NCBI GenBank assembly: GCA_965222225.1 | Contig: CBDCTK010000002.1 | Span: 3,808,001-3,872,000, forward strand | Length of the DNA: 64,000 nucleotides | DNA from: Candidatus Poribacteria bacterium | GTDB lineage: Bacteria; Poribacteria; WGA-4E; JAJDTR01 | Direction of reading: 5' to 3' | Shown here: positions 24,431 through 60,480 of the stretch, in pieces | How the letters are laid out: the number at the start of each line of letters is the position of its first letter | Position numbering within the stretch: position 1 is the stretch's first letter | The notes under the pieces: generated by a model | The model's input: the letters and a program-made list of their open reading frames with translations, nothing else | Databases searched by the model: none | Told to the model about the DNA's origin: nothing | Made by a program: the position numbers and the translations under genes

Positions 24431-24467
24431 GATCAAAGGAACGAATAATGATTGCGATAGAGATCCC
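24431..24467 (+). repeat. 37-nt structured micro-element inserted in a REP
   Basis: GATCAA AG GA AC GAATA AT GA TT GCGATAG AG ATCCC interrupts GTAGGGTGC..CTGCGCACC. Confidence 0.85.
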
Positions 24468-24632
24468 CTGCGCACCAGCCTTTGAAAGCGCCAGCGACGC
24501 GACGGGTCATTGAAAACCTCGCCAGCGTTGAGGGCGTCGCTTAATGGTTGGAAGTGCGTCCAAACAACTCACGTTATTGCGCTCTAAACCAGATTTTCAC
24601 CGCTCATTTTATCCACAACTAAGGAGGGCAAA

Positions 24633-25607
24633 ATGCAATTCAAACTGACACCTAGACTTATACTGTTTGCGGTGCTGTGTGTCTGTCTGACGAGTGAGGA
24701 ACTGTGGTTGAGAAACGCACTCGCCTTCAACACAGGTCGAATTGTTTTCACTTCCCTGAGAGATGGCAACACTGAAATCTATGTAATGGATGCAGATGGA
24801 GGAAACCAAGAAAACCTGACAAACAATCCAGCGTACGACCATGTTCCGGATTGGTCTCCTGACGGGACGAAGATTGCATTCGTTTCCGACCGAAACGGCG
24901 GCGCATCTCAAATCTACGTAATGGATGCCGATGGAAAGAACCCGATTAGACTCACGGACGGACGGCGGCATAAGTCACATCCAGACTGGTCTCCTGATGG
25001 ACAAAAGATTGCATTCACCGTCAACCCGGGTTGGATAAACGATTGGGTACATCATATCGCCGTGATGGATGCTAATGGAAATAATCGTGAGAGGCTTGAA
25101 GACCAGGCGTCGGGGCCATCGTGGTCTCCGGATGGAAAACAGATTGCATTCGTGTCCTGGAGAGACGGGAACGGTGAAATTTACGTGATAGGCACTAACG
25201 GACATGGGCTGAAAAGAGTGACGCACGATTTAGTAGGTCAACACAGACCGTCGTTTTCTCCCGACGGACGACGGATTGCATACATTGCGGAGCACGAAGG
25301 ATTCCTTCACATTTATGTAGTGGACTCCAATGGAAAGAATCTACAGAGGCTTACGCACAATGAAGAGAATCATTGGGGGCCCGCATGGTCTCCTGATGGA
25401 CAGACGATCGTATATTACGTCTGGGACGGCATCTTGGAGGGAAATCTTCACGGCACGATTCACTTGATGGCCGCCAATGGAAGATATATTAGACAACTTA
25501 GCGATGCGCGCGATCATAATCCCGACATTAGCCCGCTAGGATTAGCTGTGTCCCCCGCTTCCAGCAAAATCACAATCTGGGCGAGGCTGAAGAACCTGTT
25601 TGAATAG
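24633..25607 (+). CDS. Secreted TolB/PD40-repeat beta-propeller, paralog 2
   Basis: Near-identical N-terminus to paralog 1; PD40 repeats; AVSPASSKITIWARLK. Confidence 0.88.
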   Translation: MQFKLTPRLILFAVLCVCLTSEELWLRNALAFNTGRIVFTSLRDGNTEIYVMDADGGNQENLTNNPAYDHVPDWSPDGTKIAFVSDRNGGASQIYVMDADGKNPIRLTDGRRHKSHPDWSPDGQKIAFTVNPGWINDWVHHIAVMDANGNNRERLEDQASGPSWSPDGKQIAFVSWRDGNGEIYVIGTNGHGLKRVTHDLVGQHRPSFSPDGRRIAYIAEHEGFLHIYVVDSNGKNLQRLTHNEENHWGPAWSPDGQTIVYYVWDGILEGNLHGTIHLMAANGRYIRQLSDARDHNPDISPLGLAVSPASSKITIWARLKNLFE

Positions 25608-25748
25608 TGGAAAGTCATTTCTGGTTGTAATGAAAGCGCGAATGCCCTCTTGTATGATTTCTCACGGATTTCAGTTTAATCCAACCTACGCACCAAGTAA
25701 TAACCTACTCAAATTCAATATTGAAAAAAACCATCAAGGAACTTCAAT

Positions 25749-26783
25749 ATGCCAAGAGAACTTGTTGCTATCTCTTTACGAAACCCGGTCCTCCGCGAGT
25801 ATGAGGAGTCGGAACTCAAGCCCGAAGAGGTCAGGATAAGAAGCCTCTTCTCGGCGCCCAAACACGGGAGTGACCTTCGCACCTATCGGGCGGATACCAA
25901 AGATTATTCGAAGCCGTTTGATAAAGAGCGGCGCCTCCATGCCGGAACACCAAAATCCCCGACGTTTCCAATGAAATTGGGGAATATGACGGCAGGACAC
26001 GTTGTTGAAGTCGGGGGAGAGGTGACCGATTTTGAGGTAGGAGACCGCGTATTCGGATACCTGCCCATCCGTGAAACCCATACCGTTGATGCGCAGAGAT
26101 TGAAGAAAGCGCCCGATGGAATGGCACCCGAAGCCATCGTCTACTCGGATCCGGCCGGAGTAGCGCTCGGAGCCATCCGCGAGAGCAAACTGCGTATCGG
26201 CGATCGTGTTTCCGTGCACGGACTCGGCGCTATCGGGCAGATGGCGCTGCAGCTTGCTCGACTTCAAGGCGCGCGGTGGATAGCGGCAACCGATCCAATC
26301 CCGCTGCGCTGTGAGCTCGCCAACAAGCATGGCGCCGATCTTGTCGTTAATCCGGTCGCTCAAGACGCGGGCTTCGTCATCAAAGATCAGACGGACAAAA
26401 TCGGCGTAGATGTTGCCCTTGAGACGAGCGGGAACTATGCCGCTTTGAACGATGCATTGCGTGCCGCGGGTTATGGCGGGACGATTGTCTCGTCGGCGTA
26501 TTATACCGGCGACTCCCACGCTCTGAGTCTTGAAGGCGAATGGCACCGAAATCGGCTCACGATTATCTCCAGTCGAGATGTGAGTCAGCCCCTTCGTGAC
26601 CATCCGCTGTGGGATTCCAAACGCATCCATCAAGAGGCGTTTGCGCTGCTGCAGGAGGGGCGGCTTTCGGTGGAGGGTTTAATCCATCCTATCGTCACCT
26701 TCGACGAATCGGCTGAAGCCTACCGCGAAATCGACGAAGCGCCGGAGCTTAGCATTAAGCTGGGAATTCGGTACGATATCTAA
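25749..26783 (+). CDS. MDR-family (zinc-type) alcohol dehydrogenase
   Basis: GHVVEVGGEV..FEVGDRV, GLGAIG Rossmann motif. Confidence 0.85.
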   Translation: MPRELVAISLRNPVLREYEESELKPEEVRIRSLFSAPKHGSDLRTYRADTKDYSKPFDKERRLHAGTPKSPTFPMKLGNMTAGHVVEVGGEVTDFEVGDRVFGYLPIRETHTVDAQRLKKAPDGMAPEAIVYSDPAGVALGAIRESKLRIGDRVSVHGLGAIGQMALQLARLQGARWIAATDPIPLRCELANKHGADLVVNPVAQDAGFVIKDQTDKIGVDVALETSGNYAALNDALRAAGYGGTIVSSAYYTGDSHALSLEGEWHRNRLTIISSRDVSQPLRDHPLWDSKRIHQEAFALLQEGRLSVEGLIHPIVTFDESAEAYREIDEAPELSIKLGIRYDI

Positions 26784-26799
26784 CAAAGGAGATCATGAT

Positions 26800-27843: not shown

Positions 27844-28133
27844 GTAAGTTTTAATACTAAGGTTGGTCTACTGAAGCGACTAGGAAGGCTGGGGTTGGAA
27901 GCATGGAAGAGGGGAAGAGTGGAAGGTTCGCTCCGACGGGGCCCTCAAACCTCTGGAGCGGCATCATGGGAGCCAAAAGCTAGATAAAGCCTAACTAAAT
28001 GTGTCAAGCTAGCTAGAGTTGGGTTTCACCGTGTTCAACCCAACCCACAGGCTACACATCTCTTTTGATGTCTTCCCAACGGAACGTCTTGCCTTCAGCT
28101 AGATGCTTCTTTGCAGCTTCAAGAAATGAAATT

Positions 28134-28183
28134 TGTACCGCAATCTGTTAGTTTGCGTTCACAATCTAACAGATTGTGTTACA
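28134..28183. repeat. REPIN family B upstream of RAYT
   Basis: GTACCGCAATCTGTTAGTTTGCG plus inverted CACAATCTAACAGATTGTGTTAC. Confidence 0.85.
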
Positions 28184-28206
28184 TTCCGTGTAGAATAGAG
28201 AAACGG

Positions 28207-28929
28207 ATGAGCCATTTTGATCGCAAACTGTTCTACCAGCGTAACCTGCCGCATATACAACCGCCGGGTGCAACTTTCTTCGTCACGTTCAACCTTGCAG
28301 GTTCCCTACCACGAGCCGTACTGCAGCAGCGGAACGCAGAGAAACGCCAACTTGACGCAGAAAAATCGCACCTTCTAAAGTTGCACGGTGCCTCTCATTT
28401 CGAGGTGGTCGGAGATATAACATCTGAGCAAAAACAGGAACATCGTGAATGGAACCGGCGGTGGTTCCGAAAGTTTGAAACAGCGTTGGATAATGCACAA
28501 AGTGGGCCTCTATGGCTCAAAGACGAGCGGATTGCTAAAGAGGTAGCAGAGAGCCTGCGCTACCGAGATGGGAAAGTATACCGCTTGGACGCTTATTGCA
28601 TCATGGCAAATCATGTACATGTTGTGTTTGCTCCACTTGCAATACAACCTTCCGAAGAGGCGCAAACTAACAGTTTGCGGTACAACACACTTGCCTCCAT
28701 TATGCAATCGCTCAAAGGTTACACAGCGTGGAAGGCTAATCGTGTATTAGGGCGCAGTAACGCATTCTGGCACCATGAAAGTTACGATCATAGTGTGCGG
28801 AACACAAGCGAGTGGCAACGGATTGTCACCTACGTTCTCAATAACCCTGTAAAAGCGGGTTTAATCAAGGATTGGGAAAAGTGGCAGTGGAGTTATTTCC
28901 GGGGCTTTCACGGTATCGCAAACTGTTAG
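28207..28929 (+). mobile_element. REP-associated tyrosine transposase (RAYT, IS200-like HUH Y1 nuclease)
   Basis: RNLPH, TFFVTF, YCIMANHVH (HUH), SLKGYTA, FWHHESYDHSVR, YVLNNPVKAGL; REPINs on both flanks. Confidence 0.92.
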
Positions 28930-29083
28930 TTTGCGGCCACAATCCAACAGATTGTGCTACAGAAAGAGAGACAGTTCAACAGCATGAGTAGCATTCTCGT
29001 ACCGCAAACTGTTTGTGTGCGTTCACAATCTAACAGATTGTGGTACAGAAGAGAGACGGTTTAATAGCATGAATAGGATTCTT
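28913..29083. repeat. Two tandem ~86-bp units, each containing a family-B REPIN, downstream of RAYT
   Basis: GTA(T/C)CGCAAACTGTT...CACAATC(C/T)AACAGATTGTG..ACA + GAAGAGAGAC.GTT.AA.AGCATGA.TAG.ATTCT, twice. Confidence 0.85.
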
Positions 29084-30273: not shown

Positions 30274-30378
30274 GGCGTGTATGTTGAGCGCTTCACTTGA
30301 GGAGGATGCGCAGACAGTTCTATCGCGCTCCTTATTCAGTCACTTGATCCCTACAGTAGAAACTAATTCGAGGAGCAA

Positions 30379-31845: not shown

Positions 31846-31912
31846 GTTGCGGTTCACGGAATGGTAGGCGGTGCCCACCCTACTACACATGAAGTCGAAA
31901 AGGGGAAGATTC

Positions 31913-32764: not shown

Positions 32765-32817
32765 CGACATTGAAGGGACTAGGAAGAATAGAGATTGACC
32801 GAGAGGACAACGAGGGA

Positions 32818-32898
32818 GATAGAGATCCCAAGAATCCGGCGGACGTGAATGGGGTTGTCAATGTATTTGATTTAGTGTTTGTGGCAAATCGATTCTGA
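32818..32898 (+). pseudogene. Orphan dockerin-like C-terminal fragment
   Basis: 'PADVNGVVNVFDLVFVANRF*' resembles a dockerin repeat (DVNGDG.VN..DL) missing residues; no plausible upstream gene. Confidence 0.5.
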
Positions 32899-35993: not shown

Positions 35994-36177
35994 GAACCTG
36001 TTTGGAAAGTACATTTGCAGGGCGCGCACTGCGATCAACTGACTGGATAAGAAAGGCGATAGCTAATCCCGTGCGATAGAAGTCCCGATAGGTGTATAGC
36101 AGGCGACCACAAAAGCATGAAAAAGCCGCGCCCAAAGTGACTGAAATTGCTTTGCCACCTATTATTCAAACAGGCTC
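35994..36177. mobile_element. IS5/IS1031-like MITE, copy 1
   Basis: GAACCTGTTTGGA...TTCAAACAGGCTC, TTA target duplication. Confidence 0.8.
36033..36086 (+). repeat. 37-nt micro-element plus extra 3' half, inside the MITE
   Basis: GATCAA CT GA CT GGATA AG AA AG GCGATAG CTA ATCCC GT GCGATAG AA GTCCC. Confidence 0.8.
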
Positions 36178-37280: not shown

Positions 37281-37317
37281 GATCAACCGAACGAATAGTG
37301 AGGGCGATAGAGATCCC
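37281..37317 (+). repeat. 37-nt micro-element in REP GTAGGTCGG..CCCGACC
   Basis: GATCAA CC GA AC GAATA GT GA GG GCGATAG AG ATCCC. Confidence 0.88.
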
Positions 37318-37654: not shown

Positions 37655-37822
37655 GGTAACACTCTTTTTATCTTTTCAATTATTTCGTGTTGTGGGTTGG
37701 AATTAGCAGTAAGAGAAAAGAGGGGATTGGAGGTTTGACGTTCAAACATCCTCTGCTAGTGGTTATTGCTTTGAAGTACGGAACAACAGTCGCGGAAGCT
37801 CCTACAGAGAAATGGTGGGGCG

Positions 37823-37905
37823 GGGACCTCTATCGCAAGGGATTTGCTATGGGATCTCTATCGCATTCGCTAATCGCTCATTTGATCCTATCCGGTCGCT
37901 TGATC
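37823..37905 (-). repeat. Nested micro-elements
   Basis: Complete inner unit at 37851-37887 inside split outer unit(s). Confidence 0.85.
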
Positions 37906-37944
37906 CCAGTCTACAGACTGTCATTGTATCACAATCTGCGACTG

Positions 37945-41211: not shown

Positions 41212-41393
41212 TCTGCCTCACCTCCATCTAAATTGAATTTAGTAACGGATGAATCCTTGAACCGTGTTAATTCTTGCCGAATGTCCGTCGTACTGTCAAG
41301 CAAATTCAGCGGAAGCGACAGAACAATCGTACCGAAGGGGGGAGATTCGGGATCTGACGATTGTTCATTCCAAAAGAAATCGCGACCGGGAGA

Positions 41394-41487
41394 GGATCTC
41401 TATCGATAAAAGGAACGGACAGTGACTACGATAGTATCCTACTCACTACGGGATTTACTATCGCCTTCACTATTCGTTCAGTTGATC
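41394..41487. repeat. Nested micro-elements in both orientations
   Basis: Forward unit 41405-41440 inside a reverse remnant; reverse unit 41450-41487 next to GCTCCTAC. Confidence 0.85.
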
Positions 41488-41575
41488 GCTCCTACGGTTG
41501 GTAGCGATTGTTGTTGACCGAGAAGCGAAAGCGGGGTAAAATTCTCCCGCATTTGTCATATGGAATCACCTCTAA

Positions 41576-41786
41576 GAGCCTGTTTGAATAATCGGTGGCA
41601 AAGCCATTTTTAGTTATTTGTCGGAAGTTTTTTCATGTTTTCATTGTTGGCTGCTACATACCTGTCGCCCTGCTGGGGCTTAGGTGCACGGGGTTTTTGG
41701 TGTTTCTATACACCTTCCGCCCCTCTGGGGCTTTAGATGCTAGTGCGCAGTGCGCACCCTACAAACTGTACTTTTCAAACAGGCTC
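41576..41786. mobile_element. IS5/IS1031-like MITE, copy 2 (211 bp)
   Basis: Perfect 13-bp TIR GAGCCTGTTTGAA/TTCAAACAGGCTC, TAA target duplication. Confidence 0.9.
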
Positions 41787-41850
41787 TAAGAGTGATGGAG
41801 AGCATTGACTTTAACCAAATCGAATGATGCCGCATCCGAAGGGTTTGAAG

Positions 41851-43227
41851 ATGGCGGAAGAAACACGTTACCTTGTCCTGGATTCGCGAATCATCGCCGA
41901 CGTTGAGGGGGCAAAACTCACGCTTGGTGAAGTGGCAAAACACCCTGCGAACCCGCTCTTCACCGAGGAGAAACCGTGGGAACCCCGCTACGACAACGTC
42001 TACGCCGATGTCATTTATGACGACGACGAAAAAACCTATAAGTGTTGGTACAACCCGTTTATCGTTGACGCGCGGGTGACCAGCACGCCTCCGGAACGGC
42101 GCCATCCCGACATCATAAAGTACAACGATGTGAAACCGACGGATCGAGAGATAGGGCTATGCTATGCGGTCTCAAAGGACGGAATCCATTGGGAAAAACC
42201 GAATCTGGGCATGGCTGAGTTCGAGGGGGACAAAAGGAACAACATCGTCACGCGCCGCCGCGGCGTCGCAGGCATTTACAAGGATGGCCGCGATCCCGAT
42301 CCGACGAGACGCTACAAGATGTTTTTCTCCGCGAGCAGGGGTACGTTCGTGGCGTTCTCTCCGGACGGCTTGCATTGGGGCGAGCAAATTCCCGTACCGG
42401 GGCACGAGGGCGGTAATCGGCCAAGCGCGTTCTGGTCACCGCATCTCGGCAAGTATGTCGTAATCACCCGACGCAATTCGGATCTCGGCAGGCGCCAAGT
42501 CACGCAGACCGAGTCGTCCGACTTTGTGACCTGGAGGCGGGAGAGGAGCATTCTGGAGGGACCGACTCAGCAACTGCAAACCCACGACATGATTGTCTTT
42601 CCGACGTGCGGCTTGTACATCGGATTGGTAGGGGTGATGGTGTTTCCGGAGGAGGATTCCGATCGTGGAGTGAAGCAGCACGCCGAACTGGCGTGGAGCC
42701 CTGACACCGTCACCTGGCACCGGATACAGGAGGGCACTCCGTTTATCGGACACAGCCCCGCCGAGAAAGAACGGTACGGGGAAACACCTTACGACTGGGG
42801 CACCATCTTCGCCGCCGCGCCGATCTTCCATGACGATGAGGTCCGAATCTATTACGGTGCGGGCGACTGGCACTTCTTCGAATGGCGGAACGGCTACCTC
42901 GCGCTGGCGACGCTCAGACCCGATGGCTGGGCGGGATACGAGCCAATCGCTGCTAAAAGCACGGCGGTGGTTACGACGGAACTAGTGGATTTCGACGGGG
43001 AGACGCTTGGGGTAACCGCCGACGTGGACGATGGCGGCTCGGTTCACGTTGAGGTAGTTAATGAGGAGAACGAGTGCTTGGCGGCGATCCAACCTATTGT
43101 TGATACCGTCACTGACGGTCAAGTGGCGTGGGAGGCAGATGAATCCTTTGTCAGCCTGAACAGTAAGCGTGCGCGTCTGAGATTTCGGCTGCGCAACGCC
43201 AAACTGTACGGCTTCCAGACATGGTAG
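41851..43227 (+). CDS. Beta-propeller glycoside-hydrolase-like protein (GH43/32/130 clan-like)
   Basis: KHPANP, YAVSKDGIHWEKP, SPDGLHW, IYYG, LATLRPDGW. Confidence 0.65.
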   Translation: MAEETRYLVLDSRIIADVEGAKLTLGEVAKHPANPLFTEEKPWEPRYDNVYADVIYDDDEKTYKCWYNPFIVDARVTSTPPERRHPDIIKYNDVKPTDREIGLCYAVSKDGIHWEKPNLGMAEFEGDKRNNIVTRRRGVAGIYKDGRDPDPTRRYKMFFSASRGTFVAFSPDGLHWGEQIPVPGHEGGNRPSAFWSPHLGKYVVITRRNSDLGRRQVTQTESSDFVTWRRERSILEGPTQQLQTHDMIVFPTCGLYIGLVGVMVFPEEDSDRGVKQHAELAWSPDTVTWHRIQEGTPFIGHSPAEKERYGETPYDWGTIFAAAPIFHDDEVRIYYGAGDWHFFEWRNGYLALATLRPDGWAGYEPIAAKSTAVVTTELVDFDGETLGVTADVDDGGSVHVEVVNEENECLAAIQPIVDTVTDGQVAWEADESFVSLNSKRARLRFRLRNAKLYGFQTW

Positions 43228-43242
43228 CCATATGTAGGGTGG

Positions 43243-43278
43243 GATCAAGGGAGCGAATAGCGACCGCGATAGAGTTCC
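43243..43278 (+). repeat. Micro-element in REP GTAGGGTGG..ACTGCCCACC
   Basis: GATCAA GG GA GC GAATA GC GA CC GCGATAG AG TTCC. Confidence 0.88.
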
Positions 43279-43437
43279 ACTGCCCACCAGCCTTTTTCCT
43301 TGTGCGTCTGATTGGACGTTCACCTTCAATTATTCCGCAATGTTTGTCGATTCGAATCGAAATGATTATGATGTAAACCGTATATCCGGTCTAACTAGAA
43401 TTCTTCCGATGCCCGGGACGGGCGAGAGGAACCAGAA

Positions 43438-44502
43438 ATGTCAGAAGCAATACCTTTTAATATCCCGATGATTGACCTATGCGACGAGACAGAGCGTCAT
43501 GTGATCATCGCCCAAGGCACCCCTGAAAGCTACAAAGGGCACCCCACGACGCTCCTGATGCCGGACCAAAAAACCATGTTCTGCGTCTATCCGCTGGGTC
43601 ACGGCGGACCTTCGGCGGTTCTCCAGCGGAGCGACGATGCCGGTCTAACGTGGTCGGATCCGCTGCCCGTTCCGGAGAACTGGAAGACGGCGACCAATTG
43701 CCCGGCGATCTTCCGATTTGTCGGGCCGGACGGCGTGGAACGGCTGTTTGTTTTTGAGGGTTTGAAAAAGATGCGTCAGTCGGTGTCGCTCAACCGCGGC
43801 GAGACGTGGACGCCGTTCGAGGAGAACGGACTGAAAACGGAAATGCCCTTCACCACGATTATCGAAGTCTCCGGGAACCGATTGATGGGCGGATGGAGCC
43901 GGCAGGGACCGACGCTCATCAGCTTCTCCGACGATGGCGGCTTGACGTGGTCGCCCGAACGGGTGCTGGTTGAGAGCGGCGGGAAGTTCCCCGATTCAAA
44001 GCCGTGCGAGCCGGCGTTTGTGCGCTCGCCCGACGGGAAGGAAATCGCGTGTGTGTTGCGGGTCAGCAGCAGTATGAAATGCCGCTCTCTCGCAGTGTTC
44101 AGCGAGGACGAAGGGGAATCGTGGACGGATCCGGTGGAGCTTGACCGCACGATGACGGGGGACCGCCACCAACCGCGCTACTCGTCGGACGGACGTCTCC
44201 TCATCCCCTTCCGCGATAGGACGCTGCACAGCCCAACCTGGGGCCACTTCGTGGCGTGGGTGGGAACGTACGACGATATTCGCAACTGTCGAGCCGGGCA
44301 GTATCGCCTCAAACTGCTGCACAGCTACGACGAGGTGAAAAAGCATGACACCGGCTACCCTGGTGTGGAACTTCTGCCGGACGACACGCTTGTCGTGACG
44401 ACGTATGTCAAGTATAGACCCGGTCCTGAGAAGCAGTCCGTGGTCAGTGTACGGCTAAAGCTGGAGGAGATTGACGCTAAGGCGAAGAGCATGCGCGGTT
44501 AA
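43438..44502 (+). CDS. Sialidase-like BNR/Asp-box protein, copy 1
   Basis: SDDAGLTW, SDDGGLTW, SEDEGESW, CEP, DTGYP. Confidence 0.8.
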   Translation: MSEAIPFNIPMIDLCDETERHVIIAQGTPESYKGHPTTLLMPDQKTMFCVYPLGHGGPSAVLQRSDDAGLTWSDPLPVPENWKTATNCPAIFRFVGPDGVERLFVFEGLKKMRQSVSLNRGETWTPFEENGLKTEMPFTTIIEVSGNRLMGGWSRQGPTLISFSDDGGLTWSPERVLVESGGKFPDSKPCEPAFVRSPDGKEIACVLRVSSSMKCRSLAVFSEDEGESWTDPVELDRTMTGDRHQPRYSSDGRLLIPFRDRTLHSPTWGHFVAWVGTYDDIRNCRAGQYRLKLLHSYDEVKKHDTGYPGVELLPDDTLVVTTYVKYRPGPEKQSVVSVRLKLEEIDAKAKSMRG

Positions 44503-44643
44503 ACCATGGGAAAGACCATAATCAACCCCCGTTTCAAAACAAAATCTTGGAATCGGTTTAGAATTGCCGCCTAACTCGTATCTCTAATTTGCTGTAGGAG
44601 CGATCTCCGAATCGCGACCCTCGGTTTGCGGTAACGCGGTTCT

Positions 44644-44872
44644 GTAGGTTGGGTTGAACGGTCAAACACGAATCCGTGCCAAAGCGGAGGGAGAATCTGA
44701 CTTACAACAACATCCGCCTGTGGATAGACAAAGTGAATCCCAACACCGTATTTCCCGAGTAGCGTATCTGTCGGTTTTCTCTATGCTTGGTGAGGCTATG
44801 AGCGCCATCAAGCACCGGAACGTACGCGAAGGTTTAGGGGTTTGTTGCTCGTTTCCGTTCAACCCGACCTAC
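44644..44872. repeat. Family-A REPIN with expanded loops
   Basis: GTAGGTTGGGTTGAAC-73 nt-GTGAATCCCAAC ... GTTCAACCCGACCTAC. Confidence 0.75.
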
Positions 44873-44981
44873 GAAATATCGCTGAGAAGTTATACCATCT
44901 TGCTTAAATAACAGTGCATATAGTGCTTTCCATGGTCTATTTTGACAACTGTTTCCCTTCACGCGAAACCCCGTATGCGGG

Positions 44982-45070
44982 AATCAAGCGAGTGAATAGC
45001 GAGTGATCAAGGGAGTGGCAAGCGACCGCGATAGAAATCCCATAGAAAATCCTGTGCGATAGAAGGTCCC
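44982..45070 (+). repeat. Nested micro-elements next to a family-B REP half
   Basis: Inner unit 45005-45041; followed by ACTGTTAGTTTGCG. Confidence 0.85.
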
Positions 45071-45247
45071 ACTGTTAGTTTGCGGATTCCAAAATCTAAC
45101 GGATTAGGCAGAATGCGCGGATGATGGAATATTGCCACGAACAACCGAATTTCATGAATCCAATCGGATAGGACCTACGCAAATCTTTCCCATTACGCAT
45201 TATGTATTTCGAGACATTCAGTTACGGAAACCCCAAAGGAGTAAAAC

Positions 45248-46312
45248 ATGTCAGAATCGATACCTTTTAACATCCCAATGATCGACCTGTGCGACGAGAC
45301 GCACCGCCACGTGATTATCGCCCAAGGCACGGCTGAAAGTTACAAGGGGCACCCTACGACGCTGCTGATGCCGGACCAAAAAACGATGTTCTGCGTCTAT
45401 CCGTTGGGGCACGGAGGACCTTCCGCGGTGCTCCAGCGCAGCGACGATGCCGGTCTGACGTGGTCGGATCCGCTGCCCGTCCCGGAGAACTGGAAGACGG
45501 CTACCAACTGCCCGGCCATATTCCGATTTGTCGGGCCGGACGGCGTGGAACGGCTGTTTGTTTTTGAGGGTTTGGGAAAGATGCGCCAATCCGTGTCTCT
45601 TGACCGCGGTGAGACGTGGACGCCGTTCGAGGAGAACGGACTGAAAACCGCAATGCCCTTCACCACCATTATCGAAATCTCCGGGAACCGCTTGATGGGT
45701 GGATGGAGCCGGAAGCCATCGACGCTTATCAGCTTCTCCGACGATGGCGGCTTGACATGGTCGCCCGAACGGGTTCTGGCTGAGAGCGGCGGGAAGTTCC
45801 CCGATTCAATGCCGTGCGAGCCGGCGTTTGTGCGCTCGCCCGACGGGAAGGAAATCGCGTGTGTGTTGCGGGTCAGCAGCAGTATGAAATGCCGCTCTCT
45901 CGCAGTGTTCAGCGAGGACGAAGGGGAAACGTGGACGGATCCGGTGGAGCTTGACCGCACGATGACGGGTGACCGCCACCAACCGCGCTACTCGTCGGAC
46001 GGACGTCTCCTCATCCCCTTCCGCGATAGGACGTTGAATAGCCCGACGTGGGGCCACTTTGTGGCATGGGTGGGAACGTATGACGATCTGCGAAATTGCC
46101 GAGCGGGGCAGTATCGTCTCAAACTGCTGCACAGCTACGACGAGGTGAAAAAGCATGACACCGGCTATCCCGGGGTGGAACTCTTGCCGGACGACACGCT
46201 TGTCGTGACGACGTACGTCAAGTACAGACCGGGACCTGAGAAACAGTCCGTGGTCAGTGTGCGGTTAAAGCTGGAGGAAATTGACGCCAAGGCGGCTAGC
46301 GGGAGGGGTTGA
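45248..46312 (+). CDS. Sialidase-like BNR/Asp-box protein, copy 2
   Basis: Same 354-aa length and near-identical to copy 1; 3' flank also duplicated. Confidence 0.8.
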   Translation: MSESIPFNIPMIDLCDETHRHVIIAQGTAESYKGHPTTLLMPDQKTMFCVYPLGHGGPSAVLQRSDDAGLTWSDPLPVPENWKTATNCPAIFRFVGPDGVERLFVFEGLGKMRQSVSLDRGETWTPFEENGLKTAMPFTTIIEISGNRLMGGWSRKPSTLISFSDDGGLTWSPERVLAESGGKFPDSMPCEPAFVRSPDGKEIACVLRVSSSMKCRSLAVFSEDEGETWTDPVELDRTMTGDRHQPRYSSDGRLLIPFRDRTLNSPTWGHFVAWVGTYDDLRNCRAGQYRLKLLHSYDEVKKHDTGYPGVELLPDDTLVVTTYVKYRPGPEKQSVVSVRLKLEEIDAKAASGRG

Positions 46313-48680: not shown

Positions 48681-48825
48681 GGCTGTAACAATTAATGCCT
48701 CGCCCACATCCTCATTTCCCGTGTGCGGAGCATCGTGCCTTTCCGGCATCCCCATTTCCTGTAGGCGGGGCATCTTGCCCCGCCCGTGACCTCCGTTGGA
48801 GCGCAGCATTGAGTTGAATTTAACA

Positions 48826-48879
48826 AGATCTCTATAGAGTTCCCTAATCCGTCACTTGATCCTATCCAATCGCTTGATT
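48826..48879 (-). repeat. Nested micro-elements in a family-A REP
   Basis: Inner unit 48826-48861 plus outer 5' half abutting GTTCAACCCAACCTAC. Confidence 0.75.
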
Positions 48880-51925: not shown

Positions 51926-51993
51926 CTTGCAAATCATTGTAATAATCTACCGTTCACCGTTTCTAGGAGATTCTAAACGGATTTGGGTTTCAC

Positions 51994-52112
51994 GGGACCT
52001 CTATCACGCGGGATTTACTATCGCTTTCGCTATGGGATTTACTATCGCACTCGCTGTCCGCTCGGTTGATCGTTCGTTTGATCTCAGTCAATCCTATTTC
52101 GGTCGCTTGATT
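51994..52112 (-). repeat. Deepest nest of micro-elements (3-4 levels) in a family-A REP loop
   Basis: Four 5' ends and three 3' ends between TTGGGTTTCAC and CTTCTACCCAACCTAC. Confidence 0.85.
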
Positions 52113-52167
52113 CTTCTACCCAACCTACAGCTATTTAAGTCCTATGAAATACGCTAAAGGATAGACA

Positions 52168-53346: not shown

Positions 53347-53364
53347 TTGGCAGGATAAAGCGAG

Positions 53365-54390: not shown

Positions 54391-54437
54391 GGCTTGTGTT
54401 AAGTTGGAAGGACTTACGCAATTCGGTTTGTAGGAGC

Positions 54438-54607
54438 GATCAAGGGAGCGAATAGCGACTGCGATGGAGATTCCTTTATTGCGCGTCTTCTGTAGGAGCG
54501 AGTTTCACTCGCGACAGAAAGTCGTGGCCGGAAGAGGATTTCTATCGCACGGGATTGTCTATTGCACTCCTTATCTAGTCGCTTGATCGTTCTCCACTTG
54601 TTTGATC
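54438..54607. repeat. Forward micro-element (54438-54474) and reverse nested pair (54535-54607)
   Basis: Inner unit 54551-54588 replaces the second GA of an outer unit. Confidence 0.85.
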
Positions 54608-54732
54608 GTTGATGGCGCCCTGCAAAAAAAGGGTTGGTGCGCATTGCGCGCCCTACAGGACGGTCGTGCAATGAGAATAACGATTGTAGAAAGAAAGAGA
54701 ATCAGAGATTTGAAGATTGAACGGAGATTATC

Positions 54733-56349
54733 ATGATGAAAACGTTAACGTTCATCCTTATCGGTCTTGTCTGCGGATTCGTGTCGGTAACACCCCTTGC
54801 GGGCGAAGAGGTCAAGCTGATTGGTGTCGATCAAGGTGCGACGAACAGCCACATGTCCGTCGATATTATCGGAGACTCCATCATTCTCGGGGGCCAAATA
54901 TTGGCGCACAACATGAAGGACAGCTTCGCGACAATTTTCACATGGGATGCGAAAAGCTGGAAACGGACAGCGGAACTTCACCCCGGTGACCGCGACCCGG
55001 CGAACCCCGGCGCTGGCGACTTTGGATGGTCGGTCGCCGTTGACCGCATCCGTTGGTGGGGCATCACGAACTATGCTATCGTCGGAGCACCGCTGGACGA
55101 TGCTGCCGGCGCTAAGTCCGGATCGGCTTATATCTACGCCCGCACCGGAAACAACTGGAAACAGCAGGTGAAACTTATCGCCGATGATGCAGCAGCTGGC
55201 GACGCTTTCGGGTATGCCGTCTCCGTTTACGGAACCACGGCGGTCGTCGGTGCACCGAAGGACGATGACTCCGGCAGCAACTCGGGTTCAGCCTATGTGT
55301 TCGTGCGCGATGAGAACAGTTGGACGCAACATTCGAAACTCGTGCCGCAAGATTTGGGCGGATCCGATGCTTTCGGAGAGGCAATCTTAATCGTAGAGGA
55401 CACCGTTATCATCGGGGCGCCCGGACATACGCACGGTGAAATAAGATTCGCAGGTGCCGTCTACGTCTTCGTACGCGAAGGCGTGGCGTGGCTGCAAAAA
55501 GCCAAACTCACGGCAGACGACGCAGCAGCCAGCGATCGATTCGGAAATGTCCTCGCCATGAGCGGAAACACCCTCATCGTTGGGGCGCCATTGCGTGATA
55601 CGCAGGCAGGAAAAGACGCGGGCGCCGCCTACGTTTTCTCTCGCGACGGCGACCTCTGGAAACAGAGGGAGAAGCTCAAAGCCAAGAGCACACGGAAGAA
55701 CGACCATTTTGGCACCAGCGTCGCAACCACCGGAAAAATTGCCATCATTGGAGCGAATTTGCACGAAGAAAACGCGCTCGCCTCAGGTGCGGCATATTCC
55801 TTCGTAAATGTTGACGGGGTCTGGGAGGAAAGGGACAAGGTCGTGCCCGCGGACGCCGGTTTAAACACCCGTTTCGGCACGTGGGTCGCCATGAGCGGTA
55901 ACACTGTCGTTGCGTCTGCCGGGGTGACGCCGCACCCCGTCGCCGGAAGAAGTACCGGAACGGCAGCCTATGTGTATAATAGCATAGAGGATTTCAACAC
56001 ACCTCCGTACGCTGTTCGACCCGTTGGTTTAACCGTGACGACGCTAGGCAAGCTGAAGCGCACGGCGCTTTATCAGAACTTCCCCAATCCGTTCAACCCG
56101 GAAACATGGTTGCCGTATCGTCTGGCGGCAGATGCTCCGGTGACGTTTCGCATCTACAACACCCAAGGGCAACCGGTGCGAGAGTTGGATTTGGGCAGCC
56201 AAGCGGCGGGTGATTATCTGTCCCTAGAAGCGGCTGCCTATTGGGATGGCAGGGACGAATTGGGCGAGATTGTTTCGAGCGGCGTCTATTTCTACACGCT
56301 TCAGGCTGGCGTGTTCCAAGCCACGCGGCGGATGCTAATTTTGAAATAG
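54733..56349 (+). CDS. Secreted FG-GAP repeat protein with T9SS-A/FlgD-like C-terminal domain, paralog 1
   Basis: Repeated FG.AV...G.T..VGAP...GAAY; QNFPNPFNPETW...WDGRDELGE.VSSGVYFY. Confidence 0.88.
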   Translation: MMKTLTFILIGLVCGFVSVTPLAGEEVKLIGVDQGATNSHMSVDIIGDSIILGGQILAHNMKDSFATIFTWDAKSWKRTAELHPGDRDPANPGAGDFGWSVAVDRIRWWGITNYAIVGAPLDDAAGAKSGSAYIYARTGNNWKQQVKLIADDAAAGDAFGYAVSVYGTTAVVGAPKDDDSGSNSGSAYVFVRDENSWTQHSKLVPQDLGGSDAFGEAILIVEDTVIIGAPGHTHGEIRFAGAVYVFVREGVAWLQKAKLTADDAAASDRFGNVLAMSGNTLIVGAPLRDTQAGKDAGAAYVFSRDGDLWKQREKLKAKSTRKNDHFGTSVATTGKIAIIGANLHEENALASGAAYSFVNVDGVWEERDKVVPADAGLNTRFGTWVAMSGNTVVASAGVTPHPVAGRSTGTAAYVYNSIEDFNTPPYAVRPVGLTVTTLGKLKRTALYQNFPNPFNPETWLPYRLAADAPVTFRIYNTQGQPVRELDLGSQAAGDYLSLEAAAYWDGRDELGEIVSSGVYFYTLQAGVFQATRRMLILK

Positions 56350-56376
56350 TAGCACCCACGCAGTTGACCCGCCAAG

Positions 56377-56685
56377 CTCGACTTTGTACAAAAATACAAT
56401 TCTGAATTGCCATCTTGTAGGGTGCGCACTGCGCACCAGCCTTTGAAAGCTCCAGCGCGAGATCAAACGAGTGAATAACGAGGGATCAAGCGACTGGATA
56501 GGGAGCGTAGAAGTCCCATAGCAAATCCCGTGCGATAGAGATCTCGACAGGTTGCATAGTATCAGGAACCGCTTGAGACTTTTTCAATGGTCAACCAAAA
56601 AGACCAAATGTCTAAAATCTCCTCCATTTTTCTTCAACGCTTGATTGACACCGTTTGTTATCCCGCTTAAATGTACAAAGTCGAG
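56377..56685. mobile_element. MITE with perfect 14-bp TIR CTCGACTTTGTACA
   Basis: CTCGACTTTGTACA...TGTACAAAGTCGAG; carries a REP and nested micro-elements; related ends at 35826 and 58412. Confidence 0.75.
56461..56544 (+). repeat. Nested micro-elements
   Basis: Two GATCAA starts and three 3' ends. Confidence 0.85.
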
Positions 56686-56730
56686 TTAAACAGTTACGTA
56701 CAAACAATATAGCACGGCAAGGAGATGGTC

Positions 56731-58359
56731 ATGAAAACGACTCAGTTTATCCTCATCAGTCTTGTTGTTGGCATCGCCATGGGGAGCGCCAGTCACGCCG
56801 CCGAAGGCGAAATCAAGCTCATCGGAGCTGAGGAGGGAGCACGCAATAGAACACGTATGCCCGCCGATGTTGTCGGAAATGTCATAATCGTCGGCGTACA
56901 TGATGTGGATGTCAACAACATTCCCGGCGCGGGCAGAATCTACACACGGAATCGGACAAAGTGGGAACAGACCGCGGAACTCATCGCCCACGACCGCAAT
57001 CTAGATCAAGCCAAGCCGGGGCAGCCGGGATTCGGGTTCGCCGTCTCCATCAGCGGTCGTCCCGGGAGGACAAGCGCGGACTATGCCATCATCGGAGCGC
57101 CGGGCGACGACGACGCCGGGAAAAACGCCGGGGCAGCCTACATCTACGCTTTCAACGGGAAAGACTGGAAACAGGAGGTGAAACTTACCGCTGTGGACTC
57201 AGAAGCGGGAGACGCTTTCGGGTATGTGGTCTCGGTTGATGGGACCACTGCGGCGGTTGGCGCGCCCAAGGACGATGATGCCGGCAGCAATTCGGGGGCA
57301 GCTTTTGTCTTAGTGCGCGATGCGAATAGATGGAAGCAGCATGCGAAGCTCATCCCCAAAGATTTGGCGAAATCGGACGCACTGGGTGAGGCAGTCGACA
57401 TTCAAGGGGACACCGTAATCGCCGGGGCGCCCGGGCACACTCATGGCGGCGTAAGGTTCGCCGGCGCCGTTTACGTTTTCGTGCGTGATGGGGATGCGTG
57501 GAAGGAACAAGCTAAACTCACGGCCGACGATGCGGCACCTAGCGACCGATTCGGAGTTTCGGTTGGCATTGAAGGCGACACTGTCATCGTCGGATCGCTG
57601 CTGAACGATGCTGGCGGTAAGAAAGATGCCGGCGCCGCTTACATCTTTGTCCGTGACGGAAACAACTGGAAACAGCAGGCAAAACTGATTGCACCGAAGA
57701 AGCGAAAGGGCGACCATTTCGGTGCAGCGGTTGCCACCACCGGTAAGATTTCCGTCGTTGGCGCACCGCTCCGCGAAGAGGGCGGACTCGGCGCGGGTGC
57801 CGCGTATTCATTTGTTAACGTTGACGGCGTCTGGAAAAATGCGGAAACGGTTGTGCCCGAGGGCGCCGCGCCAAACCTCGTTTTCGGCTCCGCGCTTGCC
57901 ATAAGCGGCGATACGATTGTCGTTGCTGGCGGTGCCGCCCCTGAAGTCGCTGCCGGATTCGGTAATGGTACAGCGGCATACGTTTATAGCGGGGAGAAGC
58001 ACTTTGGCACACCACCCTTCGCTGTCGAGCCGTTTGGATTGAAGATCGCAACGCTGGGACAGGTCAAACGCACCGCGCTCTTTCAAAATTTTCCCAATCC
58101 GTTCAACCCGGAAACATGGTTGCCGTATCGTCTGGCGACAGATGCTCCGGTGACGTTTCGCATCTACAACACCCAAGGGCAACCGGTGCGAGAGTTGGAT
58201 TTGGGCAGCCAAGCGGCGGGTGATTATCTGTCCCTAGAAGCGGCTGCCTATTGGGATGGCAGGGACGAATTGGGCGAGATTGTTTCTAGCGGCATCTATT
58301 TCTACACGCTTGAAACTGGGGCGTTCCAAGCCACGCGACGAATGCTGATTTTGAAGTAG
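56731..58359 (+). CDS. Secreted FG-GAP repeat protein, paralog 2
   Basis: As paralog 1; AAGGAG RBS. Confidence 0.88.
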   Translation: MKTTQFILISLVVGIAMGSASHAAEGEIKLIGAEEGARNRTRMPADVVGNVIIVGVHDVDVNNIPGAGRIYTRNRTKWEQTAELIAHDRNLDQAKPGQPGFGFAVSISGRPGRTSADYAIIGAPGDDDAGKNAGAAYIYAFNGKDWKQEVKLTAVDSEAGDAFGYVVSVDGTTAAVGAPKDDDAGSNSGAAFVLVRDANRWKQHAKLIPKDLAKSDALGEAVDIQGDTVIAGAPGHTHGGVRFAGAVYVFVRDGDAWKEQAKLTADDAAPSDRFGVSVGIEGDTVIVGSLLNDAGGKKDAGAAYIFVRDGNNWKQQAKLIAPKKRKGDHFGAAVATTGKISVVGAPLREEGGLGAGAAYSFVNVDGVWKNAETVVPEGAAPNLVFGSALAISGDTIVVAGGAAPEVAAGFGNGTAAYVYSGEKHFGTPPFAVEPFGLKIATLGQVKRTALFQNFPNPFNPETWLPYRLATDAPVTFRIYNTQGQPVRELDLGSQAAGDYLSLEAAAYWDGRDELGEIVSSGIYFYTLETGAFQATRRMLILK

Positions 58360-58468
58360 TTGAAACTTCCTTAATGAGTGTAGGGAACGCAGATCTGCGT
58401 TCCCAACTACGCTCGACTTTGTGCATTTGTAAGGTGGGCACTCTGCCTTACATTTTTATGTAGGAGGG

Positions 58469-58505
58469 GATCAAGCGAACGGATAGTGAGTGCGATAGAG
58501 ATCCC
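58469..58505 (+). repeat. 37-nt micro-element in REP GTAGGAGGG..TTGCCCCG
   Basis: GATCAA GC GA AC GGATA GT GA GT GCGATAG AG ATCCC. Confidence 0.88.
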
Positions 58506-58638
58506 ATTGCCCCGATGTTTTATCTATAGCGTGCCATTATCCCTGTCGGAATATTTCCCTCATCAAGAAACACTCATTTTTCACTCTATGACTAGCTTTG
58601 AGAAAGTGTTACTTGGTAAAAGTTCAAAGGAGATGGTC

Positions 58639-60267
58639 ATGAAATTGACTCAGTTTTTCCTCATCAGTCTTGTTGTTGGCATCGCCATTGGGAGCGCCAG
58701 TCACGCCGCCGAAGGCGAAATCCAGCTCATCGGAGCTGAGGCCGGAATACGCAATAGAGGTCGAATGCCCGCCGATATTGTGGGAGATGTCGTAATCGTC
58801 GGCGTGCATAATGTGGACCACGACAAGTTTCCGGGCGCCGGCAGAATCTACACACTGAATCGGAATAAGTGGGAACTGACCGCGGAACTTACCCCTCATG
58901 ACCGAAAACTGAATATACCGAATCCGGGGCAGCCGGGGTTCGGATACGCTGTCTCAATCAGCGCGCCGCCAGGACGCAGAAACGCGGACTATGCCATTAT
59001 CGGAGCGCCGGGCGATGACGAAGCCGCAGAAAACGCCGGGGCAGCCTACATATACGCCTTCAACGGGCATGACTGGCAACAGGAGGTGAAACTTACCGCT
59101 GCCGACGCGGGGCAGAGAGACGCTTTCGGGTATGTGGTCTCGGTTGATGGCACAACCGCGGTGGTTGGCGCGCCCGGGGACGATGATGCCGGCAACAATT
59201 CCGGGGCAGTTTATGTCTTCGTCCGCGATGCGAACGGATGGAAACAGCACACCAAGCTCGTCCCCAAAGATTTGGCGAAATTGGATGCATTCGGTGATGC
59301 GGTCGGGATCCAAGCGAGCACCCTTATTGTCGGGGCGACCGGGCACACACATGGCGGCGAAAGATTCGCAGGCGCTGTTTTCGTCTTCGTCCGCGATGGC
59401 GATACGTGGAGGATGCAAGCCAAACTCACGGCTGACGATGCGGGTGCCGGTGACCAGTTCGGCGCTTCGGTTGGCATGGAAGGCGACACTATTATCGTAG
59501 GAGCCAAAAAGCACGATTCCGACGGCATAAAAGACGCCGGCGCCGCATATATTTTTCAGCGCGACGGAAACACTTGGAAACAGCAGGCAAAGCTAACTGG
59601 GCCAAAGAAGCGAAACGGGGATCACTTCGGAACAGGCGTTGCCACGAGCAGGAATATCGCGATCGTTGGCGCGCCGCTCCGGGAAGAGGGCGGACCCAGC
59701 GCGGGTGCCGCGTATTCCTTCGTGAATGTTGACGGCGTCTGGAAGAATGCTGCAACGGTGGTGCCCGACGTCGCACATCCAAACCTCTTTTTCGGCTCCG
59801 CGATCGCCATAAGCGGCGATACTGTCATTGTCACTGGCGGAGACGGACCGGAAAAGGGCGTCGGAGTCGGTAACGGAATAGTGGCGTATGTTTATGGTGG
59901 AGCAGAGCACTTCAATACCCCGCCTTTCGCCGTCGAGCCATTTGGTTTGAAGGTCACAACTTTGGCTCACCTCAAACGCACTGCACTCTATCAAAACTTC
60001 CCCAATCCGTTCAATCCGGAAACCTGGCTGCCGTATCGTCTGGCGACAGACGCACCGGTAACGTTTCGTATCTACAACATCCAAGGGCAACCGGTGCGAC
60101 AGTTGAATCTGGGCAGGCAAACAGCGGGTGATTATCTGTCCCGAGAAACGGCTGCGTATTGGGATGGCAGGGACGAATTGGGCGAGATGGCTTCCAGCGG
60201 CGTCTATTTCTACGCGCTTGAAGCTGGGGCGTTCCAGGCTACGCGACGGATGCTGATTTTGAAGTAG
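58639..60267 (+). CDS. Secreted FG-GAP repeat protein, paralog 3
   Basis: As paralog 2; start chosen from RBS and paralog alignment. Confidence 0.88.
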   Translation: MKLTQFFLISLVVGIAIGSASHAAEGEIQLIGAEAGIRNRGRMPADIVGDVVIVGVHNVDHDKFPGAGRIYTLNRNKWELTAELTPHDRKLNIPNPGQPGFGYAVSISAPPGRRNADYAIIGAPGDDEAAENAGAAYIYAFNGHDWQQEVKLTAADAGQRDAFGYVVSVDGTTAVVGAPGDDDAGNNSGAVYVFVRDANGWKQHTKLVPKDLAKLDAFGDAVGIQASTLIVGATGHTHGGERFAGAVFVFVRDGDTWRMQAKLTADDAGAGDQFGASVGMEGDTIIVGAKKHDSDGIKDAGAAYIFQRDGNTWKQQAKLTGPKKRNGDHFGTGVATSRNIAIVGAPLREEGGPSAGAAYSFVNVDGVWKNAATVVPDVAHPNLFFGSAIAISGDTVIVTGGDGPEKGVGVGNGIVAYVYGGAEHFNTPPFAVEPFGLKVTTLAHLKRTALYQNFPNPFNPETWLPYRLATDAPVTFRIYNIQGQPVRQLNLGRQTAGDYLSRETAAYWDGRDELGEMASSGVYFYALEAGAFQATRRMLILK

Positions 60268-60409
60268 TTGGGACTTGCGCAGATGATGCGGCTGAACATG
60301 GTTGGGGAAAGAGAAGAAGGAATCCGGCGATTTGAAGATTGAAGATTGTTGCAACAAGCCTACTATGGGAGCAAGTTTTGCTAACGACAGGAGGTCGCGA
60401 TCGGGAGAA

Positions 60410-60480
60410 GGATCTCTATCAATCAACTGACCGAACAAGGAAGGCGATAGAAAATCCCACTCCCTATCCATCGTTTGATC
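60410..60480. repeat. Forward micro-element (60421-60458) nested in a reverse one
   Basis: GGATCTCTATC[AATCAA...ATCCC]ACTCCCTATCCATCGTTTGATC. Confidence 0.85.

Follow-up and report, generated by a model that had tools for sequence, protein, structure and literature searches.

A stretch of 64,000 nt (hereafter the window; positions 3,808,001-3,872,000 of contig CBDCTK010000002.1) from the genome of a Candidatus Poribacteria bacterium carries dispersed copies of a repeat of about 36 nt. We describe it here as a new family of mobile hairpin repeats of very small size. The unit reads (G)ATCAA-N1-GA-N2-G(A/G)ATA-N3-GA-N4-GCGATAG, where N1 to N4 are dinucleotides, and is followed by a tail of 7-9 nt ending in TCC(C). 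These elements are best regarded as non-autonomous and are among the smallest mobile DNA elements seen in bacteria. Their hairpin is established by the covariation of its paired positions, and their mobility by orthologous sites that are empty in related genomes and by copies that have inserted into one another.

The host assembly (GCA_965222225.1) is metagenome-assembled and comprises 5.70 Mb in two contigs, with 50% G+C; it is called G000 below, its main contig (5.6 Mb) C2, and the relatives used in comparisons G001, G002, G003, G005 (a congener) and G012. Copies were searched with the pattern RATCAA-NN-GA-NN-GRATA-NN-GA-NN-GCGATAG, at up to 2 mismatches in the window and up to 3 substitutions in the genome, the reversed (not complemented) sequence serving as control for the genome counts. 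In the genome, 518 copies fit the pattern strictly and 1082 do so with at most 3 mismatches, whereas the reversed control has none; the window holds 13 matches, against 0.00 expected from 100 shuffles. A covariance model of the element, run on the window with matches kept at E <=1, returned 18 matches, all of them within positions 24429-60482. The repeat had been noticed in an earlier reading made from the letters of the window (the sequence-only reading). All 13 copies listed there exist, 12 of them at up to 2 mismatches and the one at 41405 only at 3; its minus-strand coordinates are 7-8 nt off ours because the tail had been counted.

A hairpin defined by covariation

The structure rests on covariation and not on folding energy. 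If position 1 is the G of GATCAA, N1 faces N4 and N2 faces N3 through the pairs 7:23, 8:22, 11:19 and 12:18, which provide 4328 cells in the 1082 copies. Watson-Crick pairs fill 3606 of these cells and G.T pairs 482 (together 4088, or 94%), the others being A.C (85) or some other combination (155). After shuffling of the columns, the Watson-Crick cells numbered 1649 on average and 1720 at most. When mutual information was computed for all column pairs within +/-30 nt, the four proposed pairs all came within the top five, the fifth being two adjacent columns of the tail. The window alone gives a similar picture: 49 of 52 cells are paired (94.2%), versus 54.3 +/- 5.8% in shuffled columns (the observed value was reached in 0 of 500 shuffles) and 19-54% when partners were slid by 1-3 columns. 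The sequence-only reading had proposed this pairing from a hand tally of 44 Watson-Crick pairs, 5 G.T pairs and 3 mismatches. Our own tally gave equal totals on a slightly different set of 13 copies (12 of the original 13 plus the copy at 30320(-), the degenerate 41405 copy being left out of the alignment), and the proposal holds across the genome.

The positions between the covarying pairs are also kept. As the sequence-only reading had claimed, the two GA dinucleotides face each other, G9.A21 being conserved in 1004 of the 1082 copies, A10.G20 in 1033 and, next to the loop, G13.A17 in 1036. The whole forms an interrupted hairpin on the GATCAA strand, with helices of 3 + 2 + 2 bp separated by 2x2 mismatches. 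Its outer part probably consists of three invariant pairs (A2-T28, T3-A27 and C4-G26), inside which lie an AA/GC internal loop, the pairs 7:23 and 8:22, the tandem G.A/A.G, the pairs 11:19 and 12:18, and a loop closed by G13.A17. At pair 4:26, T.G occurs in 42 copies versus C.A in 10. When the top strand is folded with RNA parameters, the structure of lowest energy in three of four copies (-4.4 to -8.5 kcal/mol) is the covarying hairpin together with the outer pairs A2-U28, U3-A27 and C4-G26, with weak z-scores (-0.16 to -1.66). A 5'-Y-GA-R-3' context, which favours tandem sheared G.A pairs, is present in about three quarters of the copies. An additional outer stem formed by two GATC motifs was ruled out, the GATC of the tail not being conserved. 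Since G.T exceeds A.C by about 6:1, the GATCAA strand is the strand that is selected to pair; this ratio and the conserved G.A positions support the idea that the fold is specific to that strand.

The variation of the stems is large but bounded, and the statement that no two copies are the same, with hypervariable positions, was too strong. Among the 1082 copies there are 270 distinct stem variants, of which the most frequent is found in 53 strict copies, and 37 all-Watson-Crick variants are seen. Each position draws on a restricted alphabet: T is lacking at positions 7 and 11 and A at position 8, while position 12 is only C or T and position 18 only G or A. The allowed pairs are mostly linked by transitions through G.T (C-G, T-G and T-A at 12:18; G-C, G-T and A-T at 7:23), which is the pattern expected from ordinary compensatory evolution.

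Landing sites, mobility and distribution

The element lands in hairpin-forming DNA, mostly in the stem-loops of repetitive extragenic palindromes (REPs) or in the 3' half of existing copies, where it builds up nested arrays, and also in CCCCAGNGGGG hairpins. Its 5' junction is exact, the insert lying directly 3' of a G: the junction reads ...(G/C)G^ATCAA, often GCG^ATCAA, and GCGAT occurs twice within the element itself. Insertion sites of this kind in REPs are GTAGGGTGGG^, GTAGGGTGCG^, ..CACTGCG^, GTAGGCGGGG^, GTAGGTGCG^ and CCCCAGNGGGG^ (an example of a REP target is GTAGGGTGGGCACTGCCCACC), and nested inserts follow position 13, 18, 20, 24 or 26 of the outer copy. The first G of the insert can be read as the target G in 156 of 163 nested cases. 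Over all 1082 copies, the three bases preceding GATCAA are most commonly TGC (118) or AGC (115). The sequence-only reading was right that the element itself has no GTAG end. Nevertheless, GTAGG ends 0-2 nt before GATCAA in 30 of the 1082 copies and 0-4 nt before it in 173, because these copies sit inside GTAG-type REP hairpins; the foot of the element's own hairpin lies 1-6 nt further inside than the start of GATCAA.

The 3' junction, in contrast with the 5' one, is ragged. In 25 of the 163 nested cases no target nucleotide is missing; one is missing in 54, two in 60, three in 22 and four in 2, these counts being approximate since they depend on how tail and target are divided. For inserts after G24 (76 cases), the distance between the GATAG of the insert and the ATAG of the outer copy is 7 nt in 38 cases and 9 nt in 34. 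There is no target duplication, and a GATC target-site duplication in particular was ruled out by empty sites without GATC. When one REP site is compared among paralogues and between two species, the copies found there differ in their stems yet keep them compensated, which indicates repeated site-specific insertion. Nested inserts have the orientation of the outer copy in 163 cases and are inverted in 21; neighbours less than 400 nt apart agree in orientation in 279 cases and are inverted in 84, with no preferred spacing. The window also contains, at 41572-41790, a composite repeat of about 220 nt that recurs many times across all 10 genomes of the genus (with 78-93% identity for the copies listed), and which holds one GTAGGGTGCGCACTGCGCACC REP and two CCCCAGNGGGG hairpins, all three of them frequent landing sites of the element.

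That the element is mobile, and that its copies are gained and lost quickly, follows from orthologous empty sites and from nested insertions, so that the sequence-only reading was correct in taking it for a very small mobile element. At the site of the 43243 copy, G005 has an intact empty REP (GTAGGGTGGGCACTGCCCACCAGCC) in an intergenic region that is otherwise near-identical, and the site is filled in G003. The hairpin CCCCAGAGGGG^CGACAGGTG, located 3' of an IS200-like gene, is filled in G000, in G005 and at one of the two gene copies of G001, and is empty in G002, in G012 and at the other gene copy of G001. The copy at 58469 is single in G000, whereas its G005 orthologue has a second copy nested after its G13. 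More generally, the flanks of 174 of the 1082 copies can be rejoined into an older copy, and in 163 of these cases, 588 of the 627 stem pairs that could be tested are formed between the separated pieces; these are thus the two halves of one hairpin that was split by an insertion.

The speed of this turnover appears from a comparison of 400 kb of G005 with G000, in 38 intergenic regions anchored by unique flanks, whose flanking genes are 80-95% identical. Of these 38 regions, 20 have a copy in G005 but lack one in G000. Stems are identical between the two species for only 7 copies, while 48 are specific to G005 and 19 to G000, and in the alignments the differences between species are insertions, nesting and the replacement of whole repeats. 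Five orthologous copies with identical stems in two species were recognised by eye (G000 entries 3011855, 3011968, 4080090, 2036685 and 2036647).

Among the genomes searched, the family is abundant in two genera only. Exact matches in species-representative genomes fall, in 80 of 80 cases among the matches listed, in metagenome-assembled records of Candidatus Poribacteria bacterium, among which are both chromosomes built from long reads and contigs built from short reads, produced in different projects. Among 31 relatives (G000 included), all nine other genomes of the genus have 280-761 copies and all four genomes of a second genus (g4), which belongs to another family, have 111-126; one further genome has 2 copies and 16 have none. 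Across 151 genomes sampled from the phylum, only these two genera (g1, that of the host, and g4) have it in abundance; four other genomes have 1-14 copies, and it was found in none of the 38 g3 genomes and none of the 57 g9 genomes of that sample. One of the four, G132, has 14 copies although its genus (g6) is otherwise without the element; this could be a recent acquisition, and might help to trace a gene that moves along with the element. The conserved blocks are alike in both genera, and covariation is present in g4 as well: 44 matches, 38 of them distinct, have 96.7% of 152 cells paired, a value reached in 0 of 500 shuffles and to be read with the fact that the matches had been chosen by a structure-aware model. 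Elsewhere, viral contigs gave 0 matches and metagenome contigs of JGI 2. The sequence-only reading had not recognised the repeat as a described element, and indeed Rfam gives 0 matches at gathering score in the whole window and 0 at E <=1 in 41300-45300, while no description of such a repeat in Poribacteria was found in the literature, as judged by titles and abstracts. The repeats amount to about 0.7-0.8% of these sponge-symbiont genomes.

How the element might move

The position of the copies bears on mechanism. Outside crude open reading frames, which cover 81% of the contig, lie 948 of the 1079 chromosomal copies. Their density, 0.73-1.06 per kb, differs little between intergenic regions of the convergent, tandem and divergent types. 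Once the elements themselves are masked, the GATCAA strand is on the C-rich strand in 728 of the 1079 copies (67%), and in 523 of 710 (74%) where the absolute skew exceeds 0.02, a bias that is present in each class of gene arrangement. Co-orientation with genes has a weaker effect (341 co-oriented versus 292 opposed copies in tandem contexts), so that orientation is not set by transcription. The intact GTAG REPs of G000 exhibit the same bias (84 of 126). Along the 5.6 Mb of C2, the GC skew changes sign at least 6 times, because of either many inversions or assembly joins, and the orientation of both elements and REPs tracks the local skew.

Candidate enzymes were sought among the 7 Y1/RAYT-like loci of G000, a genome that also has several GTAG REP families. 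The RAYT-like gene of the window (Table 1), for which no Pfam match was found at 0.01, was rejected as mobiliser, being flanked by its own, different repeat doublet, CCGCAAACTGTTAGTTTGCGG..CACAATCTAACAGATTGTG. This two-hairpin repeat (at about 28138-28185, 28918-28965 and 29002-29050) is a separate family with a REPtron-like layout, which also occurs in intergenic regions of congeners. Other Y1 loci lie among GTAGGGTGCGCACTGCGCACC, GTAGGAGCGATCTCC..GGTCGCGA or GTAGTAGGCA..TGCC repeats. Copies of the element do stand on both sides of a 93-aa Y1 fragment and of an intact IS200-like gene (G000:C2:3080258-3080728; 157 aa, PF01797, 84 bits). However, what this gene conserves at its flanks from genus to genus is CCCCAGNGGGG..AGGTG hairpins, and neither G002 nor G012 has the micro-elements there; its TnpA was rejected as mobiliser since the neighbouring copies are secondary insertions and its phyletic pattern is unlike that of the element. 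A longer autonomous master was also looked for: among the top repeated of 354 intervals of 400-4000 nt, there were only an insertion sequence (IS) of the IS1595 family and genes with leucine-rich (LRR) and HEAT repeats. This IS, unrelated to the micro-element, encodes a 284-aa DDE transposase and has at least 6 near-identical copies (e.g. G000:C2 987000-988750, 5351800-5353400 and 5359450-5361450), with ends GGAATTAGTAGC...ACTAAGTCCC and 8-bp target duplications. Finally, the region G000:C2:1527000-1585000, around a partial RAYT gene (1545693-1545926), is unusually dense in GTAGGGTGCGCACTGCGCACC REPs and micro-elements.

We tentatively favour, at somewhat less than an even chance, the hypothesis that the element moves as single-stranded DNA, on which a Y1 (HUH) transposase would act in trans. 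In its favour are the pairing selected on one strand, the strand bias shared with the GTAG REPs, the prevalence of nested inserts in the orientation of the outer copy, and the presence of Y1 loci and GTAG REP families in the genome. Only copies that keep their shape could be copied again, while the letters of the stem would drift by compensatory changes, often via G.T, with pairing preserved; such a regime would account for the covariation. The step of which we are least confident is that the single strand may be handled at replication forks by a transposase of the RAYT/IS200 type. Several points weigh against this hypothesis. No cognate enzyme was found among the 7 loci, at five of which the flanks carry other repeats or no repeat; the IS200-like gene has orthologues in g6, where the element was not found in the three genomes tested, and no orthologue was found in 2 of the 4 g4 genomes that carry the element. 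The element has one hairpin and not two, and no GTAG guide. Its 3' junction, usually lacking target nucleotides (0-4), is not what the seamless chemistry of IS200/IS605 predicts, and the excess of nested inserts in the same orientation may be due in part to the G-richer top strand. DNA nearest-neighbour parameters, which give no credit to sheared G.A pairs, predict nothing stable: the values of -0.6 to -1.9 kcal/mol do not surpass those of shuffled sequences. Lastly, the usual skew rule would make the C-rich strand the lagging strand and the G-rich one the lagging-strand template. In most copies the folded strand of the element is on the C-rich strand, which would be opposite to the expectation from IS608 and ISDra2, though the repeated sign changes of the skew along C2 call for caution. 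The active strand of these two is the lagging-strand template, according to the part of PMC6006769 that concerns them.

Alternatively, the element could move by primed copying, an explanation that we consider unlikely although it deserves serious attention. In this scenario a 3'-OH ending in G would be extended on a small structured RNA or single-stranded DNA template of defined length, by a reverse transcriptase or by polymerase template switching, and the product then rejoined imprecisely; a nascent strand that has stalled at a hairpin could act as primer. The exact 5' junction after a G, with the first G of the insert doubling as the target G, would be the primed end, and the ragged 3' junction with its missing target nucleotides and tails of 7 or 9 nt would be the rejoined one; the targets are hairpin-forming, i.e. 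places where synthesis would stall, and no cognate Y1 gene turned up among the loci examined. A G.A-closed GNRNA-type pentaloop with tandem G.A is a typical RNA motif, and the RNA-parameter fold of the top strand coincides with the covarying structure in three of four copies, but the z-scores are weak. Primed copying is also confronted with the weak co-orientation with genes, simple template switching does not explain the sharply defined ends, and no reverse transcriptase or template gene was encountered, no search having been aimed at them. A more radical version, which we also find unlikely, would make the element a minimal replicator moved by no transposase of a known family: a template of about 36 nt, recognised by nothing but the shape of its G.A-interrupted hairpin, copied onto a 3'-OH G at stalled hairpins on one replication strand, and rejoined with imprecision. 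If true, DNA would have a new way of moving, polar and based on primed synthesis, and the small dispersed repeats of cyanobacteria discussed below would be explained too.

The repeat could alternatively serve the host, for instance by binding a nucleoid protein or an RNA-binding protein or by forming a hairpin that stabilises transcripts, its spread being a by-product of recombination and its shape being kept by host selection. REPs in other bacteria have such secondary roles, most copies lie outside open reading frames, and the conserved blocks are common to the two genera in which the family persists. We nevertheless give this idea little credit, given the very high turnover between congeners, copies that insert into and destroy one another, a density that is alike across intergenic classes, an orientation that follows replication skew and not genes, and the failure to find the repeat in most of the Poribacteria genera searched. 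Much less probable again is the suggestion of the sequence-only reading that the paired positions are re-randomised and self-templated at each synthesis. The 270 stem variants and the different but compensated stems found at one REP site might be quoted in its favour, and only 7 copies in the 38 regions compared have kept identical stems; but repeated insertion at a hot spot explains the latter site, where tails and nesting differ too. The five orthologous copies inspected have preserved their stems between species, and the alphabets are restricted, with 37 all-Watson-Crick variants and mostly transition-linked pairs. Self-templating meets a further objection, as fold-back copying would render G.A/A.G and G13.A17 complementary and leave no G.T, whereas the G.A positions are conserved and 482 cells (11%) are G.T. 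As for an adapter, a barcode or another sequencing or assembly artefact, its probability is negligible, since the element is abundant in many independently assembled Poribacteria genomes of two genera (hundreds of copies in nine congeners of the host, plus the four g4 genomes), in long-read and short-read records of different projects, and with some copies at orthologous positions. A Y1 transposase acting on single-stranded DNA is our tentative working hypothesis, which can be tested with oligonucleotides and the few Y1 proteins of the genome.

Copies in the window and comparison with known systems

The copies of the window are gathered in Table 1, where the nested groups are described in the sense of their own strand. 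Two adjacent paralogous genes of the window, at 54733-56349 (538 aa) and 56725-58359 (544 aa), have no NCBIfam match at E 1e-10, and their counterparts in G005 cross-match at about 81%.

Table 1. Copies of the micro-element in the window, and a Y1 gene given for context only
Feature	Position	Strand	Score	Remarks
Full copy	24431..24467	+	57.3 bits	Stems AG,AC,AT,TT; within GTAG-type REP: GTAGGGTGC / element / GCGCACCAGCC
RAYT-like Y1 transposase gene (context only)	28208..28929	+	NF047646, E 4.6e-16, 59 bits	Below cut-off 80
Full copy	30313..30349	-	50.3 bits	Missed by the sequence-only reading; GTAGG directly upstream on own strand
Degenerate copy	32791..32830	+	26.8 bits, E 3.7e-4	
Full copy	36033..36085	+	53.0 bits	Followed by leftover tail (N4-GCGATAG-AAGTCCC) of an older split copy
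Full copy	37281..37317	+	60.6 bits	In REP-like palindrome: GTAGGTCGG / element / ...CCCGACC
Nested group	37815..37906	-	55.8 bits	Inner full copy (core 37858-37887); outer-copy head upstream of it, two tail pieces downstream
Degenerate copy	41403..41440	+	26.8 bits	Copy listed earlier as 41405; 3 mismatches; tail to tail with the 41451..41487 copy
Full copy	41451..41487	-	59.3 bits	GTAGGAGC upstream on own strand
Full copy	43243..43278	+	55.4 bits	Inserted in REP GTAGGGTGGG^CACTGCCCACCAGCC
Nested group	44981..45075	+	51.0 bits	Outer-copy head (AATCAAGCGAGTGAATAGCGAGT), inner full copy 45005-45041, two tail pieces
Degenerate copy	48824..48863	-	23.4 bits, E 0.0022	
Nested group	51985..52120	-	53.3 bits	Three older heads, inner full copy (core 52042-52071), three tail pieces
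Full copy	54438..54474	+	57.4 bits	GTAGGAGC upstream
Full copy	54530..54610	-	50.2 bits	Core 54559-54588; older head upstream, tail piece downstream
Diverged copy	56482..56518	+	36.3 bits, E 2.6e-6	
Full single copy	58469..58505	+	59.2 bits	
Full copy	60421..60457	+	51.6 bits	AATCAA variant; inverted tail (GGATCTCTATC) directly before

How repeats shorter than about 40 nt move, those of cyanobacteria included, is an open question, and the data on the present element are uncommonly clear in this respect. At least 13 related genomes carry it, at about 1000 copies per genome; its 5' junctions are exact, its nesting can be scored, its structure is fixed by covariation, and its strand bias is shared with REPs. 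Its practical consequences are also to be considered, because the repeats reshape intergenic regions between species and thereby affect the assembly, binning and comparative analysis of Poribacteria.

The closest analogues would seem to be the small dispersed repeats (SDRs) of cyanobacteria, especially SDR5, and REPs, the SDRs being likened to our element by description and not by sequence. Copies of SDRs nest in one another, a behaviour that is documented here for the Poribacteria element. Elhai et al. (2008, Genome Res 18:1484) reportedly described such repeats (SDR4-6) in Nostocaceae. In the passages of PMC5861425 and PMC4390886 that deal with them, SDRs are below 40 nt, present in high copy number, dispersed and judged mobile, with no known enzyme, all of which fits the element described here. 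SDR5, as presented in the relevant part of PMC4390886, inserts precisely between the 3rd and 4th nucleotides of HIP1 (GCGATCGC), i.e. GCG^ATCGC, a junction that resembles the frequent GCG^ATCAA of our element. The differences are the host and the length (21-27 nt in cyanobacteria, about 36 nt in Poribacteria). HIP1 is not enriched in G000 (120 sites in 5.7 Mb), and the element lands in REPs and other hairpins. A cyanobacterial origin of the DNA, first suggested by the GCGATC motif, was rejected on account of this lack of HIP1 enrichment and of the Candidatus Poribacteria records that match. The G.A-interrupted hairpin with four covarying pairs is documented in the Poribacteria element.

With REPs and the REPIN-RAYT system the element shares its nature of a short, high-copy, mostly extragenic hairpin repeat, and it has the strand bias of the genome's own GTAG REPs. 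The criteria given in the section of PMC6006769 on REPs are GT[AG]G located 0-2 nt 5' of the hairpin foot and a fully paired stem of 7-20 nt with a loop of 2-5 nt. The element has neither a GTAG/GTGG at that distance nor such a stem, its helices being of 3 + 2 + 2 bp; it does not form the inverted doublets at fixed spacing of REPINs and BIMEs (neighbours in the same orientation prevail); and, at the loci examined, it has no cognate flanked tnpA-REP gene as in a REPtron. It is a parasite of REP hairpins and not itself a REP.

The IS200/IS605 family and its miniature derivatives, the palindrome-associated transposable elements (PATEs), resemble it in a mobility linked to hairpins of one strand, in the absence of target duplication, in a short adjacent target and in an orientation linked to replication. 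They differ in having a hairpin at each end, where our element has a single one, and IS200/IS605 elements insert seamlessly 3' of a specific tetra- or pentanucleotide, whereas our element has a single G as target and loses target nucleotides, within the range of 0-4, in 138 of 163 nested cases by our scoring. Integron attC sites, finally, are folded single strands that are recognised by shape, with covarying stems and with R/L boxes (GTTRRRY). The element is comparable to them in conserving shape over sequence through covarying stems, but it is much shorter, lacks R/L boxes, and occurs as about 1000 solitary dispersed copies, in contrast with the cassette arrays of integrons.

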